Of a DNA stretch of 64,000 nucleotides, positions 2,553 through 63,990 are shown piece by piece (positions within the stretch are counted from its first letter, which is position 1; every line of letters begins with the position of its first letter). The translations under genes were made by a program, and so were the position numbers. Location: the sequence record MZ501109; one strand, written 5' to 3'. This DNA comes from Escherichia phage TrudiRoth. The notes beneath the pieces were generated by a model that made no database searches, had not been told where the DNA came from, and was given only the letters and a program-made list of their open reading frames with translations.

Positions 2553-2802
2553 TATACCCTCCTTCTCTAACTAAGACTACTATTATAACTCATTCGAAGG
2601 CGGATGTCAACAATATTTTACTATAAAGTTCTGTAACATGATCTGAGTCAAAAAATTTTATTTGCCAACCTCTACTAAAAATAGTATAATCACGCATCCG
2701 TGTACGCGATATAAAATGATTATCTAGTACCATACATCTCCCAATAAAAGCAAGCAAATTTTTTATTTAAATGCAATATCATAGGCTTATTTAAAATTGT
2801 AG

Positions 2803-8659: not shown

Positions 8660-9510
8660 AGCAATATATTGAAACTGGAAAACGTATTCTTGAAGAGGGT
8701 GTATGGGTAACGAATCCTAGAACAGGGGTTCGTTGCCTAACCATTATTGATGCAGACTTTACCTTTAACGTAGGAGCAGGAGAACTGCCGCTAGTAACTA
8801 CTCGTAAAGCATTTGCTAAACAAGCAATAATGGAAATGATCGGATATCTCCGTGGGTACGACTCAGCAGCACAATTCCGCGCTATTGGTGTTAATACATG
8901 GAATGCTAATGCAAATGAAAATATTGCCTGGCTAGGTAATCCATTCCGTAAAGGCGAGGATGATATGGGACGAGTCTATGGTGTTCAAGGACGTCATTGG
9001 ACTAATTCTGATGGTATGGTATTTGATCAGTTAGCCAAAGTCTATCATAATTTGAAAAGAGGGATTGACGATCGTGGAGAAATTTTAACTTTTTGGAACC
9101 CTGGGGAATTTCGTAAAGGATGCCTACGTCCGTGTATGCATACCCATCAATTCTCTATTTTAGGTGATACACTATACCTAAACTCTTTCCAGAGGTCTAA
9201 TGATTTCTTGCTGGGCCAAGTATTTAATATGGTGCAATGCTATGCACTTCTAGCTATTATGGCACAGATTACAGGTCTTAAGCCAGGTATTGCTCGTCAA
9301 AAGATTATTAATCTTCATATCTATGAAGATCAGTATAATGTTCTGATGGAGCACAAGCAATTCGATCGTGAACCTTTTGCACCTCCTACTTTAGAAATCA
9401 ATCCAAATATTAGAACTTTGGATGATGTATTAACGTGGGTAAGTAAGGATGATTTTACTGTTCGTGGCTATGAACACCATCCTGCTATTGCATATCCATT
9501 TACGGTGTAA
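8656..9510 (+). CDS. thyA: thymidylate synthase
   Basis: 284 aa, catalytic [10 protein letters not shown] (PCH) motif, no intron interruption visible. Confidence 0.85.
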
Positions 9511-9558
9511 CATATATTAATTATACTATTATTTGTCATATTCTTTCTAAAACATTTT

Positions 9559-9867
9559 ATGGCCGATTATCCACTCCAAACACCATATATGCTAAAAAAG
9601 ACGCATAAAATAGGGTGGAAACTTCCATTATTAACCCATTCGCTAGTACATGCTGGATTAACATTTGCAATTCTAATCCTATTCACATCACCAGGAATGT
9701 CTATAGCTTTAGCTATTATGGAATTAATTCTACACTTTATTATAGATTATTGGAAAGCACAACGCTGTAAATACGCTATAAGCGATGCTAAGTTTTGGAT
9801 AGCTTTAGGATTTGATCAGTTACTGCATTATCTGACATACGCCCTAATAATCTTGATTATAATCTAA
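9559..9867 (+). CDS. small membrane protein
   Basis: 102 aa with three hydrophobic segments; terminator follows. Confidence 0.5.
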   Translation: MADYPLQTPYMLKKTHKIGWKLPLLTHSLVHAGLTFAILILFTSPGMSIALAIMELILHFIIDYWKAQRCKYAISDAKFWIALGFDQLLHYLTYALIILIII

Positions 9868-9872
9868 TTCAA

Positions 9873-9895
9873 ATAGCCCTTCGGGGCTATTATAT
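9873..9895 (+). terminator. terminator-like hairpin
   Basis: AUAGCCC-UUCG-GGGCUAU followed by AU-rich tract. Confidence 0.5.
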
Positions 9896-9965
9896 TTAAA
9901 TTTCATTTGCTTACTGAGTGAAATTCAAATATAATATACTTCTAATTTGACAGAAGGATTTAATA

Positions 9966-10544
9966 ATGACAGCCATAGTAGCATTTAAATATAAAGATAA
10001 AGTATACTTAGCCGGTGATCGTATGGGTTCTAATGGCTATACGAAACTGCTGGTTAAAAATCCGAAAGTATTCAAAATCTCTGATGATTTGTGCTTCGGA
10101 TACACTAGTTCCTTCTACATGGGACAATTACTAGAGCATAGCTTTACTGTACCACCACGTTTAGCAGATATTTCTGATGATAAATATTTATATACGGAAA
10201 TAGTACCTAAATTACGTGATATGTTTAACCAGAAAGATTTTGGCGAAAAGAAAAATGAAAAATATGCTGAACCTAATCTGGGACAATTTATTATGCTCTA
10301 CAAAGGAAGAATCTTTATTTTCCAATCTAATGCTTCTATTCTAGAAGTTGAATATGCCGGTGTAGGCTGTGGAGGAGAAGATGTACTTTCCAGTATTCGT
10401 ACAGGTTTAGCTATTGCGGATTGTCGAGCCACAGATTTAGATGTAGATGATATATTTGAAATCATTGATCTGGCTTTTACGCATTGTGCAGATTATATGT
10501 GTGGTGTATCTTCTCAACATGATATTTTAGTAATTGGAGAATAA
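9966..10544 (+). CDS. HslV/proteasome-like Ntn-hydrolase family protein (putative)
   Basis: N-terminus MTAIVAFKYKDKVYLAGDRMGSNG resembles HslV TTIV..AGD; AGVGCGG resembles the GSGG loop; RBS present. Confidence 0.5.
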   Translation: MTAIVAFKYKDKVYLAGDRMGSNGYTKLLVKNPKVFKISDDLCFGYTSSFYMGQLLEHSFTVPPRLADISDDKYLYTEIVPKLRDMFNQKDFGEKKNEKYAEPNLGQFIMLYKGRIFIFQSNASILEVEYAGVGCGGEDVLSSIRTGLAIADCRATDLDVDDIFEIIDLAFTHCADYMCGVSSQHDILVIGE

Positions 10545-10546
10545 AT

Positions 10547-10816
10547 ATGTCTATTCTTTTATCTGCTTTAGAAGCAAAACAAAATACTATTGCTAGCATT
10601 AAAAAGGAAGTAATTGACCTAGAATCACTTATTGCCGTAGAGATTGACAAAGCTATTAAAGATAAAGAATTTAATTGTCACATCCAGGGATTAACTGAAT
10701 ACTCAGAAAACGCTAGAAATAGCGTCATGCAAAAACTTAGCAAACTAGGTTATGTTGTAGAAGCTAAGTATGAACAGCGTGAAGGTTTTTGGCTTGAAAT
10801 TGATTGGAGCAAATAA
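10547..10816 (+). CDS. hypothetical protein
   Basis: 89-aa ORF start-coupled between neighbours. Confidence 0.45.
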   Translation: MSILLSALEAKQNTIASIKKEVIDLESLIAVEIDKAIKDKEFNCHIQGLTEYSENARNSVMQKLSKLGYVVEAKYEQREGFWLEIDWSK

Positions 10817-11292
10817 TGTCGGTTTTCCACATATATACAGATGGTGCATGTAAAGGCAATCCTGGTTTAGGTGCGTGGGGATTCGTTGTCTATAATGATA
10901 ATGATGATCGTATTGGCTCTAAATCTGGCTTCAGCCCTAAAACTACTAATAACGAAATGGAACTTACTGCAATTGTAGAAGTTCTTCGTTGGTCTACTAA
11001 GAAAGATAATCGTCCAGTAATTATCTACACTGATTCTGCTTACTGCAAAAATGGTATGGAAAGCTGGATGTGGTCTTGGCAGAAGAAAGGCTGGAAGAAG
11101 GGAGATGGTGAAACCCCTCTTAATCTAGAACTCTGGCAAGAAGCATTTAAACTAACCCAACAGTACATTAACTTCCATGATACCAATCCAACCTTTGTTA
11201 AGGTTAAAGGTCACTCAGGTATTCGTGGTAATGAAGAAGTTGATGCTCTATGCAATACTGTAATTACTGAGCAAGAACTTGCTGAGATGTAA
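10816..11292 (+). CDS. rnhA: ribonuclease H
   Basis: RNase HI motifs HIYTDGACKGNPG, ELTAIVE, IYTDSAY, HSGIRGNEEVDAL; ORF opens at TTG 10804, ATG 10816 follows GGAG. Confidence 0.85.
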   Translation: MSVFHIYTDGACKGNPGLGAWGFVVYNDNDDRIGSKSGFSPKTTNNEMELTAIVEVLRWSTKKDNRPVIIYTDSAYCKNGMESWMWSWQKKGWKKGDGETPLNLELWQEAFKLTQQYINFHDTNPTFVKVKGHSGIRGNEEVDALCNTVITEQELAEM

Positions 11293-28097: not shown

Positions 28098-28173
28098 GGG
28101 CGAATAGTGTCAGCGGGAGCACACCAGACTTGCAAGTCTGGTAGGGAGGGTTCGAGTCTCTCTTTGTCCACCA
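28098..28173 (+). tRNA. tRNA, isotype unresolved (Ala-UGC or Cys-GCA)
   Basis: Acceptor GGGCGAA/UUUGUCC, D-stem GUGU/ACAC, T-arm GAGGG-UUCGAGU-CUCUC, CCA; perfect anticodon stem CAGAC/GUCUG encloses only 6 nt (UUGCAA). Confidence 0.45.
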
Positions 28174-46649: not shown

Positions 46650-47168
46650 ATGAGAGATAAAATAAACGAATTACTTTATGAGGAAGCATTACAATTCCCC
46701 ATAAATAGATTCACTAAATCAGATGGATCTATTAATAGAACTAAGCTCAAACAACTTCATCCAGATTTCCAGCAAGATGCACTTAATCTAATCTTTATTA
46801 GAAGAGCTGTAGAAGCACATGGTAAGTTCTTTGGGTATGAAAGAGTTAAGTATAGAACTATGCAACAGCAAGTTGAGATCTATTGTCCAGATCATGATGG
46901 TTACTTCTTGCAAACTGCACGGTCTCACTTAGAAGGACATGGTTGCCGATTATGTGCACATAAAGTTGTGACACGCTTAACAGAATATGGAGTGTACACC
47001 GTACCAGCACCTTTCCACAAATTTATAGTTGACGGTGAGCACATAATTTGGTATAATAAAGATCAAAAGTTAAAACAGGAGTTAAAGAAAGATGGAGTAC
47101 GTAGTCTGGTCAAACCCCTTAGCTCTACTCTCCCACAAACTGTTCAAGACGACGTGGGGAAAGAATGA
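46650..47168 (+). CDS. zinc-finger protein, paralog of 49190 (possibly truncated)
   Basis: Shares LHPDFQQ.ALNLIFI, YGYERV and ARSHLEGHGC..CA with ORF 49190. Confidence 0.45.
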   Translation: MRDKINELLYEEALQFPINRFTKSDGSINRTKLKQLHPDFQQDALNLIFIRRAVEAHGKFFGYERVKYRTMQQQVEIYCPDHDGYFLQTARSHLEGHGCRLCAHKVVTRLTEYGVYTVPAPFHKFIVDGEHIIWYNKDQKLKQELKKDGVRSLVKPLSSTLPQTVQDDVGKE

Positions 47169-48475: not shown

Positions 48476-49197
48476 GTATAAAAAAGAATTTAGCAGAGAT
48501 TATTAAGTTAGCTAGAGCTTGTAATGGAAAGAATGTTTCCGAACTTAATGAGTTAGAAGCTCATGCAGTAGCATTTTGTGCAGAGTTTTATCCAGCATAT
48601 ATTAATGCTAGTGGGCAACCTAAATATAATAAAGATGCAGAAGAAGTCACATTAGCCCCTTCATACATTAGCTTACGTCGTCTAATTCAAACTATTGATC
48701 CGACTATTAAAGGATTCTCAGCGGATTCATTCCATGTGTTTGCAGATGTAGAACTTCCACATTTTAAGGAAGCAAATGCAAAGTCAGCATTAGAATGTTA
48801 TCCAAATATTTTAATGGTTCCACAAAAGCAATGTAAATACGATCATCTTCCTAGACTTATTAAAAAGGTAGAACCTCCTTATTCTTCCTTATCTGAATTA
48901 AAGCTAGGGATTGTATCTACTCTTACGCAAGTTCATCTAAGTTTAGTTGATGACAATGTTACTTCTAATCCTATTCTAGATGCCGCACATTATGAAATTC
49001 TACGTGACCCTGAGCAAGCTAGAAAAGTTGCAAAGTCAGTTAAGTTTGATATCTCAACAATTCTTGACATTGAACAAGAAACGAGACCTAGAGGAAGTGT
49101 GGATTATTCTGCGCTTAATTCTGAAGCATCTTATTTAGCGACATTCCTTTTTATGGCATCGAAAGGAGTTATTCTAAAGGTTAACAAAGATGGATGA
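48472..49197 (+). CDS. hypothetical protein
   Basis: 241-aa ORF. Confidence 0.5.
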   Translation: MSIKKNLAEIIKLARACNGKNVSELNELEAHAVAFCAEFYPAYINASGQPKYNKDAEEVTLAPSYISLRRLIQTIDPTIKGFSADSFHVFADVELPHFKEANAKSALECYPNILMVPQKQCKYDHLPRLIKKVEPPYSSLSELKLGIVSTLTQVHLSLVDDNVTSNPILDAAHYEILRDPEQARKVAKSVKFDISTILDIEQETRPRGSVDYSALNSEASYLATFLFMASKGVILKVNKDG

Positions 49198-49918
49198 TTT
49201 ACGTAGTGAAATTAATAAAAACCTAAGAGAGGAAGCCAGGAGGTTTCCTCTCAAAAACTTTTTAAAGTCAAACGGTTCTACTAATATTACAAAGATTAGG
49301 CAGCTTCATCCAGACTTCCAACAAGAGGCATTAAATCTTATCTTTATTAAGAAAGCATTGAAAGTCCAAAAGGAAGAGTATGGGTATGAAAGAGTTAACT
49401 ATAAAACAGCTACTCAATTAGTAGAGATTTGGTGTTACAAACATCAAGGCTATTTTATGCAAACAGCTAGATCCCATCTAGAAGGGCACGGTTGTTTACA
49501 ATGTGCTAGAGAAAGCAATCTCAATACACCTATCGAGAAACCGGAAATAGATGAGGATGTTCAGTTTCCCACCTATCTCTATATCTTCTCTAATAAGGAT
49601 CAGTCTAGGAAGAAATTAAAGACGAAGATTGGAGTTTCTAGAGAGCCACATCAAAGGTTTAAGAATCTAGAATATGATAAACTGCGTGTGCCGGGTTTCG
49701 AAGATATGGAAGTATTTGGTATATATCAGTATAAGAAAGGATCTAAAGAACTTGCTTATAAAATGGAACATCAAGCACATAAATTTTTCGAGAGCAGATT
49801 TGCTAATCATTATAAATTCGATGGAGCAAAAGAGATATTCAACGTTAAGGCTGTGGAGGCAGAAGAATATTTATTAAGTCAAGGATGCATAAAAATTTAC
49901 CCAACTCCAAACTCATGA
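49190..49918 (+). CDS. zinc-finger plus GIY-YIG/T5orf172-like protein
   Basis: N-terminal Cys/His cluster (HQGYF...HLEGHGCLQCA) and C-terminal TYLYIFSN...KIGVSREPHQR. Confidence 0.5.
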   Translation: MDDLRSEINKNLREEARRFPLKNFLKSNGSTNITKIRQLHPDFQQEALNLIFIKKALKVQKEEYGYERVNYKTATQLVEIWCYKHQGYFMQTARSHLEGHGCLQCARESNLNTPIEKPEIDEDVQFPTYLYIFSNKDQSRKKLKTKIGVSREPHQRFKNLEYDKLRVPGFEDMEVFGIYQYKKGSKELAYKMEHQAHKFFESRFANHYKFDGAKEIFNVKAVEAEEYLLSQGCIKIYPTPNS

Positions 49919-49945
49919 TAAAAATTTAAAAGTAACGAAATCTGC

Positions 49946-49975
49946 TTGACATTCGTGAGAATAATGTGTTATAAT
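49946..49975 (+). promoter_or_regulatory. near-consensus sigma70 promoter with no downstream ORF
   Basis: -35 TTGACA, 18-bp spacer, -10 TATAAT; opens into the repeat region. Confidence 0.55.
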
Positions 49976-50378
49976 AATCTCATAGATTAAAAACATCAAC
50001 TTGTTTTTACCTCTAGGCCGTAGATTTACATCATTCCTCGTAGGAAAACACTTGATGACGGTTCTGCTTGCAGGTTCTCGTCAATTGTTCTTCCTCCCCG
50101 AGACTCAGGAGGATGTATCAAATCGCGCGCGCCTAGAGGGGCTAACTCTCATGAAATGGGGGTATATTAACTTTTAAATAACTAAAAATATTTAAAGGCA
50201 ATATTTATGTTCAAGATGATACACCTGTTGCCGCTCATCTGCTAGGATGGCACAACACTTTCTTCTAGGCTCCTAAGTTTCTAGGAATAGTTAAGCACTA
50301 ACTCTAGAGTTTACACTAAACTTTAAATCTGTTTCTCACACATTCTAGGGCAGTTTCTCTCCAACGTTACATATCCTA

Positions 50379-50418
50379 GGGCGGTTTCCTATACAGGGCG
50401 GTTATAGGGAGGGCGGTT
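50379..50418. repeat. three close copies of GGGCGGTT
   Basis: Copies at 50379, 50396 and 50411, each preceded by TAGG/CAGG. Confidence 0.7.
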
Positions 50419-50462
50419 ATTTCTAGGAGACATTTTTTGAAAACACATTTCTGGAAATTACT

Positions 50463-51062
50463 GTCGGATTTGCACATTACATTTCTAGAAATTTATGGTC
50501 GGATTTGCACATTGATAGGAGTCTCCAAAGTTTTTAGGAACACTGAAAATAGCAGCATTATTTCGGGCCGAAGGCCCATATTTGCCTGAGTTTTTAGAGC
50601 CACAGGAATTTTCACTTGTCAAGCGATTTTGCCCCATTTTGCTAATAAAATTTCGCTTTATCTCCCCTAATCTCAATTCTAGCCAAAACATCCCGCATTA
50701 TCCTCAAAAATGCAGCAAACCGGTGCTAAAGCACCATCACCGCTGCTCCTTCCGTAGTTCCTCCCAAAATCTCATCGGATTCGCACTTCTCCCCAAACTC
50801 ACACAATCACACACCCTCTCATCGAAGTCACAAAAATCTTGTCGGATTTGCACACCTTAACACTTGTCGGATTTGCACATACTCTAGTAAACCCAGCTGG
50901 ATTGCATCGCAGTTGCGGATTGCTGGAGTTTTTAGGAAAATTCATTGTCGGATTTGCACACTATAAAAATTTTTCGGGTAGGATTTGCACATTACCAAAA
51001 ATTGTCGGATTCGCACATACACGCCAGCACGTAACCCATGGAGCAAATGTCGGATTTGCACA
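50463..51062. repeat. about nine dispersed direct copies of a GTCGGATTTGCACA-like 14-mer
   Basis: Exact copies at 50463, 50498, 50841, 50866, 50947 and 51049; variants at 50774 (ATCGGATTCGCAC), 50978 (GTAGGATTTGCACA) and 51004 (GTCGGATTCGCACA). Confidence 0.85.
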
Positions 51063-51090
51063 AAAGCGCAGGGCAATTTGCCCTGCCTGC

Positions 51091-51250
51091 CGAAATGCGA
51101 ATGATAATGAGAATGATTCGCATTTGAGAAGTTGAATGCGAATGAGAACAGTTATCATTTGACTACCGGAATACGAATGAGAATGATTTGCATTTAGGAA
51201 GGGAAACGCTAATAATAATGAGAATGACTCGCATTTACAAAGCGAAGTGA
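51091..51250. repeat. four degenerate tandem units of about 36-42 bp
   Basis: AATGAGAATGA cores at 51106, about 51141 (variant), 51175 and 51217, each followed by (T)CGCATTT. Confidence 0.75.
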
Positions 51251-51268
51251 GAAACACTGTTATTTAAG

Positions 51269-51351
51269 TTATCCACAGGTTTATTAACAGCACGATCTGA
51301 CTTGACAAAATCCTAGTGATTTTGAGGCGTTATCCACAGACTTATCAACAG
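51269..51351 (+). promoter_or_regulatory. two iteron-like 22-bp repeats each containing a consensus DnaA box
   Basis: TTATCCACAGGTTTATTAACAG at 51269 and TTATCCACAGACTTATCAACAG at 51330. Confidence 0.6.
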
Positions 51352-51360
51352 GTTATTCTA

Positions 51361-51378
51361 CTGTATATTTATACAGTA
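51361..51378. repeat. 18-bp near-palindrome CTGTATATTTATACAGTA, copy 1
   Basis: Identical 18-mer recurs at 55075-55092 on the other side of the - strand block. Confidence 0.8.
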
Positions 51379-60147: not shown

Positions 60148-60882
60148 ATGAATCAAGTTAATATGAATATTACCCGCGCTTTCCCGCATATTTCCCGCGT
60201 TATGATTTGGGATTTAGACGGGACAATCATTAATTCAATGCACCGTGTAGCGCCTTGTTTTGATGATAACGGAAATTTAAATTTAAATAAGTATTCCCGC
60301 GAAGCCTGCAAACATGATTTAATTATGCAGGATTCTTTATTGCCGTTGGTTGAATATATGCGCCAATGTATGAATGATGCAAATACTTTAAATATTATTT
60401 GTACCGCGCGCCTTATGTCTAAAAGCGATTACTTTTATTTGCGTAAACAAGGCTTGCGAGGGCGCGGAAATAGCAATATCCGCGTATTCTCCCGCGATAC
60501 ATTACACAAATACTTTGAAGCGGATAAGGTTAGCGAAATATACCACAGCAAAGACGCTGTATACAAAAGCTATTACTTTGAACTATTTAAACAGCTATAT
60601 CCGAACGCTGATTTTACGATGATTGATGATCATAAAGGCGTATTATCGGCGGCGGCAAGTGCTGGATTTAAAACGTTGGATGCTCAAGCCGTTAACGATA
60701 TCCTATCAATCGGCGTAACATTGATCGGTGAAACCTTTATTGATGAATCGCTTGATGATGATAACGATTATCAATTCCTAGCCGAACGTTTAAAAATGTG
60801 TTGGGAAGGTATGACCGAGGAAGAACGCGCGGAATATAGTACCACTCCGCAACAATTCATTGATAAATTAAAAGTTGCCTAA
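60148..60882 (+). CDS. dmp: 5'-deoxynucleotidase (HAD family)
   Basis: HAD motif I WDLDGTI; 244 aa; terminator follows. Confidence 0.7.
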   Translation: MNQVNMNITRAFPHISRVMIWDLDGTIINSMHRVAPCFDDNGNLNLNKYSREACKHDLIMQDSLLPLVEYMRQCMNDANTLNIICTARLMSKSDYFYLRKQGLRGRGNSNIRVFSRDTLHKYFEADKVSEIYHSKDAVYKSYYFELFKQLYPNADFTMIDDHKGVLSAAASAGFKTLDAQAVNDILSIGVTLIGETFIDESLDDDNDYQFLAERLKMCWEGMTEEERAEYSTTPQQFIDKLKVA

Positions 60883-62208: not shown

Positions 62209-63990
62209 ATGAGTTTTTTCGCAGGAAAATTTAGTGATGGTAAAACTGTATTATCTCTAAACGCTGCTAATGGTGGTGATATAAATCAGCACTACTCTCC
62301 AAATACTAATAGTATCTTCCACTCAGATATGCCATTTGTCCTAGTTGATGGGACTTATGAAGCAGCCCTAGGTAACGCAGGTAATGGATACTTTGTTACT
62401 CAGATGCCTTGGGATATTATAAATATTAAATCCAATGATCCGGGTAGAGTTATATTAACTGCTATTGAGATAAACGGTACTCATCGTGGATTTCTGAATG
62501 GTACTCAATCTCAGGTTGGCCAGTTCTTATCATTCTTTGAAGACCCACCACGTGCTGGTGCTGAATTATCTGTAACATCTGCTTTTGCGATCGGTGATAG
62601 TTTAGCTCATGGTACTTATATCTATAATGGTGGTCTTGGTCATGAGGAATCTATTGCTAGGCAAGGTTCTGGAGGCAGTTTACTACAGTCCTCTGGTTTC
62701 CAGATCTTTAGACCTGGTGGTGTTTCTGCTGGTGAAGCCATTGCCAGAGCCTGGAGTCTTATGGGTTTTCCAACTGGTGTCTCTACTGTTCCTTTAGATG
62801 GTGGTAACGCAGATTATTGGGAACCTAACTGGCAGGCGCCTATTGGTTCTGCTGGTAGAGGCCATGATTGGTTTTATGTTTGTAGTTCTAATATTCGTGG
62901 CTTCGCAGGTAAAAAAGGCGTACTACCAGATAACGTAAACGTTCTTTACCAATCTCCTGCATACCCAGAAAAAATATATGTTTGTAGAGGTTCTACTTCT
63001 AATATGGCTGCTCAGTCTGCTAGAAAGGTATATGTACAGGACTGGTATAACGTTACGCCAACTAAGGTTATTTGGTATGTGCTAAATCTGCGCTATTCTA
63101 ATGGTAGTATGGGAGTTTCTGGTAATCCATTTACCGGTTCAGATATCCTAATATCTCCGTCTAATTTTACTATTAAAGGTGTTAGCCTACCAAATACAGG
63201 CTATAAATTTATTAACCAGAATGCTTTCGGAAACTTAGGCTATCGCCCTGATATGGAGTATGTTGGTAATAACGCTGCGTATACCGGAGTTTTTGGTGAT
63301 AATACTGCACGATGTGAATTTATCGGCTCTAGTAATGGCGGGTTGTGGTCTCCTGTTAACTATGGGGGTGCAGCTTCTCAAATTAGCTTATATAAATTTG
63401 GTATAGGTAAACAATGGTATGTAGATACTAATACCAACTCCATTGGTAATGAACATGGACCTGTGTGGAGTCCTAGTACTGTACCCCTCAGGTTATTCCC
63501 AGGCAACGTTGCAAGTACTTATGTAGGGGACGATATAACTCCATCCTACCCTGGTGCTGGTGACTTCTACACACCTTTGGCCACAGTTTGGTTGGGATTA
63601 CCAAATGCTCACTCTACTGTTATATTAACTACTGAAGTTATTATGGGTAATCTTAATACTGCTGGAATGCCTGTGCGTACTTACGGCGGTAGCGCTTGGC
63701 AGGTACAAGGTAGACGTCAACAAAGTTATACAGCTGGTGATGGTGTATTCCACCAGATTCTTACTCTGCCACCTGGATATCTAGTACCTTATCACAGTAC
63801 AACTTCCTATAGTTATATACAGACTTGGGCTAGTAGGCCTGATGAGTTTGCTTTCCGTAGGAACGGATATATTTATACTATTAAAAACCTTGGTAATGGC
63901 AACGTTGAGTTGGGTGTTATCATTCACGCTGCAGAAGCGGCAGCTGTTTTCTTGCCAAGACTACGTGTAACAGTTCAACGCCTAACCTAA
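62209..63990 (+). CDS. oad: receptor-binding tail protein (pb5-like)
   Basis: 593 aa, Gly/Asn/Ser/Thr-rich, paired with the llp-like lipoprotein as in T5 oad-llp. Confidence 0.6.
   Translation: MSFFAGKFSDGKTVLSLNAANGGDINQHYSPNTNSIFHSDMPFVLVDGTYEAALGNAGNGYFVTQMPWDIINIKSNDPGRVILTAIEINGTHRGFLNGTQSQVGQFLSFFEDPPRAGAELSVTSAFAIGDSLAHGTYIYNGGLGHEESIARQGSGGSLLQSSGFQIFRPGGVSAGEAIARAWSLMGFPTGVSTVPLDGGNADYWEPNWQAPIGSAGRGHDWFYVCSSNIRGFAGKKGVLPDNVNVLYQSPAYPEKIYVCRGSTSNMAAQSARKVYVQDWYNVTPTKVIWYVLNLRYSNGSMGVSGNPFTGSDILISPSNFTIKGVSLPNTGYKFINQNAFGNLGYRPDMEYVGNNAAYTGVFGDNTARCEFIGSSNGGLWSPVNYGGAASQISLYKFGIGKQWYVDTNTNSIGNEHGPVWSPSTVPLRLFPGNVASTYVGDDITPSYPGAGDFYTPLATVWLGLPNAHSTVILTTEVIMGNLNTAGMPVRTYGGSAWQVQGRRQQSYTAGDGVFHQILTLPPGYLVPYHSTTSYSYIQTWASRPDEFAFRRNGYIYTIKNLGNGNVELGVIIHAAEAAAVFLPRLRVTVQRLT

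Follow-up and report, generated by a model that had tools for sequence, protein, structure and literature searches.

By its sequence, the source of the DNA analysed here (a stretch of 64,000 nt, referred to as the window) is a T5-like phage of the Demerecviridae. More than 500 phage records matched the 3 kb around the promoter that is the subject of this report, the best being Salmonella phage KKP 3953 (92%) and Escherichia phage EscoHU1, both members of the Demerecviridae. Twenty-three tRNA genes were found at 16.6-30.7 kb, a gene set that is usual for T5-like phages. At 28098-28173 (+), ARAGORN called a tRNA of undetermined identity with a four-base anticodon (tgca), which scored 40.2 bits as an Rfam tRNA.

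Comparison with annotated T5 (NC_005859) and with EscoHU1 showed that the window is oriented in reverse relative to T5. The + strand ORFs up to position 49918 are the leftmost early genes, and the inner boundary of the terminal repeat falls near window position 50596, equivalent to T5 10219. The promoter is located 3' of the last early-region ORF, in the unique early region approximately 620-650 bp outside the terminal repeat, and is aimed toward that repeat. Repeats at approximately 50.4-51.4 kb of the window correspond to the injection-stop region of T5 (iss 9140-10149), with its TGTCGGATTTGCACA repeats and DnaA boxes; the first member of a repeat family occurs near 50276 (D5) and the bulk lies at 50395-51363. 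Within this region, 50455-51065 and 51268-51363 hold 8 or 9 copies of (T)GTCGGATTTGCACA together with paired DnaA-box-like sites (GTTATCCACAG, twice, and TTATCAACA), and the inferred terminal-repeat boundary leaves two of the TGTCGGATTTGCACA copies (50455-50514) outside. A homologue of dmp, the leftmost gene of the T5 terminal repeat, is present at 60148-60882 and is followed about 1.3 kb further on by a 593-aa + strand ORF (62209-63990). The terminal repeat appears to be present once in a circularly permuted assembly, so that the genome ends are not readable from the window.

The promoter occupies positions 49946-49975 of the + strand. A -35 hexamer, TTGACA (49946-49951), is separated from a -10 hexamer, TATAAT (49970-49975), by an 18-nt spacer (TTCGTGAGAATAATGTGT, 49952-49969) that ends in TGt and thereby supplies an extended -10 TG at 49967-49968. 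The site, TTGACA-18-TGtTATAAT, agrees with the sigma70 consensus at 12 of 12 positions and has the TG besides, when 0.14 perfect TTGACA-N16-18-TATAAT sites are expected per window from dinucleotide-preserving shuffles. Judged by sequence, it is a real sigma70 promoter motif and more than a product of chance, which its conservation confirms. Hexamers and spacer are exactly as given in the preliminary description, with the extended -10 TG in addition. The same description had called the site the best promoter match in the window, a rank it shares with a second 12/12 site at 2582-2610 (-). This second site (TTGACA-17-TATAAT, with the optimal 17-nt spacer) precedes a 624-aa ORF (678-2552, -) at a distance of 30 nt from its ATG. 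The ORF has a GGAGG ribosome-binding site (GAAGGAGGG), and the site resembles a strong early-gene promoter of the ordinary kind. A further promoter-like site, 11/12 with TG (TTGACG-17-TATAAT), was seen in the early gene block at 47029-47057 (+), where it overlaps the 3' part of ORF 46650-47168.

Conservation of the promoter was assessed in loci gathered from IMG/VR, metagenomes and GenBank, which yielded 21 distinct promoter sequences from T5-like loci. We scored 23 versions, consisting of 19 of these 21 and one from each of four distant genera (Klebsiella, Serratia, Proteus and Vibrio). Pairwise identity was 92% at the -35, TGn and -10 positions and 34% in the rest of the spacer, which was 17 or 18 nt long. 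The TG was present in all 23 versions. The -35 element read TTGACA in 16, TTGACG in 4, and TTGCAT, TTGACT and TTTACA in 1 each, and the -10 element read TATAAT in 18, TATCAT in 4 and TACAAT in 1. Exact retention of -35, TGn and -10 amid drifting spacers is a pattern typical of a working promoter. In T5 itself the homologous site is TTGACA-17-TGtTATCAT on the minus strand at 10878-10850, where the RefSeq record (NC_005859) has no annotated feature; nearly all relatives have either no annotation or a hypothetical protein at the locus.

The distant Demerecviridae share this arrangement, with the last early gene followed by an extended -10 promoter directed toward the non-coding region and terminal repeat. 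Syntenic promoters of this type were found in Klebsiella phage Roth50 and Proteus phage 1 (12/12 each), Vibrio phage D308 (11/12) and Serratia phage Slocum (10/12 with TG), phages whose A1 or T5.015 homologues are 34-74% identical to those of the window. Aeromonas phage AhSzw-1 had no convincing promoter at the syntenic place, and pattern scans of metagenomes and IMG/VR returned more promoter-spacer variants and no new classes of the downstream sequence described below. The gene that precedes the promoter is variable. In the window it is an ORF directly upstream (49190-49918, +) encoding a putative homing endonuclease with a T5orf172 domain (GIY-YIG-like), and in T5 it is an unrelated, T5.018-like gene, an arrangement that suggests insertion of an endonuclease next to the putative RNA gene in this phage. 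As the upstream genes differ, the promoter is not a by-product of its neighbour.

A49982 is the putative start site, placed by its 7-nt spacing after the -10 element alone. A palindrome, AATCT-CAT-AGATT (49976-49988, +), spans this position. Its T5-class counterpart is AACTC-TAT-GAGTT, in which the symmetry has been kept after changes in both arms, and the palindrome may be an operator; it begins upstream of the predicted +1 and so fits a DNA operator better than an RNA element. Six matches with at most two mismatches were found in the window (4.1 expected) and the copy at 49976-49988 was the sole exact one, so that a repeated operator was rejected. All identified T5 early promoters carry an ATATT discriminator consensus between -10 and +1 (Klimuk et al. 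2020, PMC7472727). The corresponding sequence is AATCTC in the window and AACTCT in T5; both differ from ATATT, so that the promoter lacks the mark of that class.

The sequence downstream of the promoter is unique for approximately 195 nt from the predicted start (49982 to about 50176) and belongs to no repeat family. A predicted 204-nt transcript (49982-50185) folds at -66.8 kcal/mol, with a z score of -5.5 relative to shuffled controls. In this predicted fold, an 8-bp hairpin with a 6-nt loop (P1, UAAAAACA/UGUUUUUA, 49988-50009) is followed by a 130-nt irregular long hairpin (P2, 50010-50139) closed at its base by CCUCUAGGC/GCCUAGAGG, and then by a terminator-like hairpin (P3, ACUCUCAU-GAA-AUGGGGGU, 50145-50163). 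A U-rich tail, AUAUUAACUUUUAAAU (50164-50179), is the probable 3' end region. The preliminary description had the promoter pointing into the repeat region. The orientation toward the repeats stands, but the promoter does not lead directly into them, as 49976-50209 is unique and structured.

The equivalent T5 sequence has the same predicted fold plan (z -6.1). Approximately nine sequence classes were distinguished among the relatives, and every class has P1, a long P2 and a 3' hairpin in its predicted fold, with z scores of -2.8 to -6.9 for 11 class representatives. In the distant phages, too, a long hairpin comes right after the promoter (z -5.3 in Slocum, -5.9 in Proteus phage 1, -3.3 in Vibrio D308 and -2.9 in Roth50). 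P2 interiors of different classes cannot be aligned with one another, and the P1 position is occupied by at least seven different hairpin sequences. Short motifs recur nonetheless: the base of P2 carries CUCUAG/CUAGAG in the window classes and Vibrio D308, CUAGAG in Slocum and UAGAG/CUCUA in T5, and a UCACGCG-like motif recurs on the 3' strand of P2, where the window has AAUCGCGCG and most other classes UCACGCG.

In all 11 representatives, the promoter strand was predicted to fold more stably than its reverse complement, by 2.5-17.6 kcal/mol. This asymmetry is expected of selection at the RNA level, which tolerates G-U pairs, and not of a DNA cruciform. Covariation was analysed in two alignments. 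Alignment A1 comprised 10 distinct sequences of the T5 class, which align unambiguously, with 71 predicted pairs. Pairing was retained in 99.9% of its cells, with 3 compensatory pairs, 4 switches among GC, GU and AU and a single broken cell, compared to 36-44% pairing and 0-1 compensatory pairs when partners were slid. G-U pairs at columns 29-167, 48-141, 71-113 and 176-194 of alignment A1 support the strand specificity. Alignment A2 comprised 17 sequences of other classes, aligned with MAFFT on sequence alone and thus not fitted to structure. Single-sequence folds were projected onto its columns, and the scaffold consisted of P1, the P2 base and P3. Here 84% of cells were paired, versus 40-51% with slid partners, and 7 pairs were changed on both sides, versus 1-3 in the slid controls; 3 of the 7 P1 pairs were changed in this way. 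None of 500 shuffles reached the A2 covariation score, a significance that is overstated given related sequences and few independent events. The compensatory changes are, for the same reasons, supportive of P1 and P2 rather than conclusive. P3 showed no covariation in A2, where U-to-A changes break pairs in some classes. As it varies by pair-breaking changes only, P3 was not counted among the conserved helices but classed as a terminator-like hairpin.

As the interiors of the hairpins are not alignable, no more than 11 pairs were left in a cross-class RNAalifold consensus computed on a plain MAFFT alignment. A covariance model built from the window-related classes recovered its own classes at E values of 1e-24 to 1e-37 and, even with filters off, missed the versions of T5, S132, Roth50, Slocum, Proteus and Vibrio. 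Homology across classes therefore rests on synteny, architecture and short motifs (CUCUAG, UCACGCG), and it is on these, with sequence similarity between the distant classes below significance, that we infer one homologous RNA family for all Demerecviridae versions. Rfam 15 had no match to the locus in the window at its gathering threshold and none in six relatives, and a search of 49900-50700 at E values up to 10 gave chance snoRNA matches only. No tRNA or tmRNA was called at the locus, and both identities were rejected.

The 3' end differs in strength among the versions. In the window, P3 has an 8-bp stem containing G-U pairs, the U tract is interrupted, and a terminator scan of the window did not flag it; the 3' hairpin and U tract are likewise weaker in T5 and Roth50. 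In one relative (locus L007), the scan identified a canonical terminator on the promoter strand approximately 170 nt after the start, with a 14-bp stem plus a T-run. After the Slocum hairpin come GGGCTATAT...ATAGCCC and the T-rich tail TTATTTTTT, in that order. With a terminator as weak as that of the window, read-through into the repeats may still occur. A non-coding transcript across the repeat region had been proposed; a non-coding product is likely, but its extent would be that of a structured unit of about 170-205 nt that precedes the repeats.

Just 3' of this unit lies a 57-bp element (TTCAAGATGATACACCTGTTGCCGCTCATCTGCTAGGATGGCACAACACTTTCTTCT, 50210-50266, +) that is nearly invariant between T5 and this phage, whereas the RNA interior and the flanks diverge. 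An ATGATAA-AACCTG core related to it is present 3' of the Slocum terminator, and the element could be a candidate protein-binding site. The stretch between the RNA unit and the terminal-repeat boundary includes a CTAG-rich segment (50260-50430, +) with repeated TCTAGG and GGGCGGTT(A/T) motifs, which the CUCUAG/CUAGAG at the base of the long RNA hairpin echoes.

Several alternatives to a discrete RNA gene were considered, beginning with a small protein. Two reading frames follow the promoter, a 58-aa ORF with a TTG start (50001-50177, +) and within it the mini-ORF MKWGYINF (50151-50177). A hypothetical protein is annotated at the locus in some GenBank records, GAGGGG is found 9 nt upstream of the ATG at 50151, and MKWG-type peptides occur in four classes. 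Set against this, the 58-aa ORF has no match in Pfam or PHROG, no ORF, frame or peptide is common to the sequence classes, the indels between classes are not multiples of three, and the mini-ORF is lost in three classes, being reduced to ATG-TAA in Kenya-K42 and lacking an ATG in L013 and S132. A protein-coding locus was rejected on these grounds, and we regard a small protein as the product of this promoter as extremely improbable. The earlier view that no real + strand protein gene lies downstream is thus upheld. In Slocum, a 45-aa 'hypothetical novel protein' (CPT_Slocum_029; L069 4514-4651) is annotated over the predicted RNA hairpin and is probably a spurious CDS; several Salmonella phage records have similar hypothetical proteins annotated over the locus.

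According to another explanation, the promoter drives a long non-coding transcript that acts in cis. In that case only some of the polymerase would terminate at P3, and the rest would read on through the repeat region into the terminal repeat, converging with the rightward pre-early operon (homologues of T5.011-T5.017, - strand in the window) and producing RNA antisense to it. Such transcription could shut off the pre-early genes by interference or antisense pairing after second-step entry, or could melt the DNA beside the repeat boundary and so assist end processing or packaging; the folded 5' segment would then serve as a leader, perhaps of the antitermination type. Packaging in T3 and T7 depends on transcription through the pac region and provides a precedent. 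The explanation also agrees with a promoter position and orientation toward the repeat boundary kept in every relative examined, with the weak or atypical terminators of the window, T5 and Roth50, and with a 57-bp element more conserved than the RNA itself. We consider it unlikely, however, as the strong canonical terminators directly 3' of the hairpin in L007 and Slocum argue that the short RNA is the selected product, and simple read-through has no need of a fold conserved with compensatory changes. Outside the locus itself, the 64-kb window, which covers about 60% of the genome, holds no match or complement to the RNA longer than 11 nt, which is the chance level; this speaks against antisense action, and a pairing partner in trans within the window was rejected as well. 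A role at the level of DNA is less probable still. The locus would then be a high-affinity RNA-polymerase site, or a hairpin or cruciform used in injection, replication or packaging, and its transcript would be incidental. It does lie at the edge of a 1662-bp non-coding region with an injection stop signal, DnaA boxes and palindromes (bioRxiv 10.1101/866236), the start-site palindrome resembles a protein-binding site, and an inverted repeat pairs as DNA too. Yet the fold is stabler on the promoter strand throughout the representatives, the G-U pairs, whether invariant or switching, would become A-C mismatches in the opposite strand, the promoter elements are kept by selection while spacers drift, the terminators of L007 and Slocum are on the same strand, and the site is outside both the first-step DNA and Davison's repeat region 3 (T5 9194-10409). 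A bare RNA-polymerase binding site, which the preliminary description had offered as an option, leaves unexplained the conserved folding in approximately nine classes and four distant genera, the strand bias and the compensatory changes.

We therefore favour, and hold to be likely, the reading that the promoter drives a discrete, conserved and structured non-coding RNA gene of T5-like phages, which we describe as putative. It draws together a selectively conserved promoter motif, a fold kept among the relatives and biased toward one strand, compensatory base changes and the lack of coding potential; from these we infer transcription, the 5' and 3' ends, the timing and any function of the putative RNA. 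As predicted from sequence, it is best read as an unannotated RNA that forms a new family of a known general kind. Neither the promoter nor an RNA at the T5 position was mentioned in the full-text literature searched, which included bioRxiv 10.1101/866236 and PMC7472727, and the searches of papers brought up no RNA-seq or Northern record of such a transcript.

Under the RNA-gene reading, the consensus -35 and extended -10 elements would recruit the sigma70 RNA polymerase of the host, which would start near A49982 and produce an RNA of approximately 165-205 nt (190-195 nt in this phage). At its 5' end this RNA would form a short hairpin, followed by a long imperfect one, and it would end at a hairpin plus U-rich tract. 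The gene lies between the last early gene and the terminal repeat, beyond the injection stop point by over 1 kb when placed on the T5 coordinates, and so could be transcribed only once second-step DNA transfer begins. It would be among the first sequences to enter in that step and would then be transcribed by the host polymerase. Its product would presumably act as an RNA in trans. Protein binding or decoy activity, through the shape of the long duplex and the basal motifs CUCUAG/CUAGAG and UCACGCG, appears to be the likeliest mode, since the hairpin interior changes freely while the shape is kept. A stronger version, to which we assign a rather low probability, is that the RNA is family-wide and essential or nearly so, with a role in a T5-specific process that would explain its fixed position outside the terminal repeat. 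Candidate roles in that case may include the pre-early-to-early switch that follows second-step transfer, processing or duplication of the terminal repeat in packaging, or service as an RNA decoy against a host defence or nuclease.

Mechanistic accounts of two-step injection, pre-early shut-off and restriction resistance are still incomplete for T5, a classical model phage. So far, the 1.6-kb 'non-coding' block at the inner edge of its left terminal repeat has been treated purely as a DNA signal. Should the right-hand 250 bp of this block be a promoter and a conserved small RNA gene, T5-like phages would have an unrecognised RNA component at an early second-step locus, and hypothetical CDSs annotated here, such as Slocum_029, would probably be spurious. 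The promoter also illustrates how strictly selection can hold an extended -10 promoter to the consensus across genera.

The known system nearest in position is the T5 injection stop signal, reportedly treated by Heusterspreute in 1987. The T5 non-coding region extends over 1662 bp (9194-10856) and contains repeat region 3 (9194-10409), the injection stop signal, DnaA boxes and many palindromes (Davison, bioRxiv 10.1101/866236), in an account from which the word 'promoter' is absent. The promoter and putative RNA belong to the same block, the order of which is conserved among T5-like phages, and the right edge of the T5 region (10856) coincides with the -10 element of the promoter. At T5 positions of approximately 10,640-10,880, however, they are not within repeat region 3, iss (9140-10149) or the terminal repeat (end at 10219). 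The approximately 195 nt that would be transcribed are, moreover, unique and not repeated, which sets them apart from iss.

T7 and T3 have promoters, phiOL and phiOR, that flank the terminal repeat, and their packaging is transcription-dependent. The locus described here resembles theirs in having a conserved promoter that adjoins a direct terminal repeat and is aimed at it, but differs in its use of the host sigma70 polymerase and in the conserved predicted RNA fold and terminator-like hairpin placed between promoter and repeat boundary. Among small RNAs of classical coliphages, the T4 species 1 and 2 RNAs and the T5 low-molecular-weight RNAs are small and stable, are encoded in tRNA clusters and are processed from tRNA precursors. 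The candidate is comparable to them as a phage-encoded small RNA of unassigned function, but it is not tRNA-like, has a promoter and a terminator-like end of its own, and is approximately 19 kb away from the tRNA cluster.

The pRNA of Bacillus phage phi29 is a structured packaging RNA of approximately 170 nt, transcribed from a strong early promoter of the host-sigma type, with its gene near the genome end; it acts as an RNA and not by base-pairing with mRNA, and is built on a three-way junction with interlocking loops. The predicted RNA would likewise be a phage-encoded structured non-coding RNA of similar size, made from a strong host-sigma promoter near a genome end. It differs in consisting of a single long hairpin in place of the three-way junction and interlocking loops, and it has no Rfam match. 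T5 packages its DNA with a terminase, and we know of no RNA requirement for T5 packaging. In 6S RNA, the 5' and 3' ends are paired and there is a large central bubble; the predicted fold has no such bubble and leaves the ends unpaired, and no Rfam match links the two. What the candidate has in common with 6S RNA and with adenovirus VA RNA is a length of approximately 160-200 nt and a long imperfect hairpin whose shape is kept while its sequence drifts, and by this analogy the retention of shape suggests recognition of that shape by a protein.
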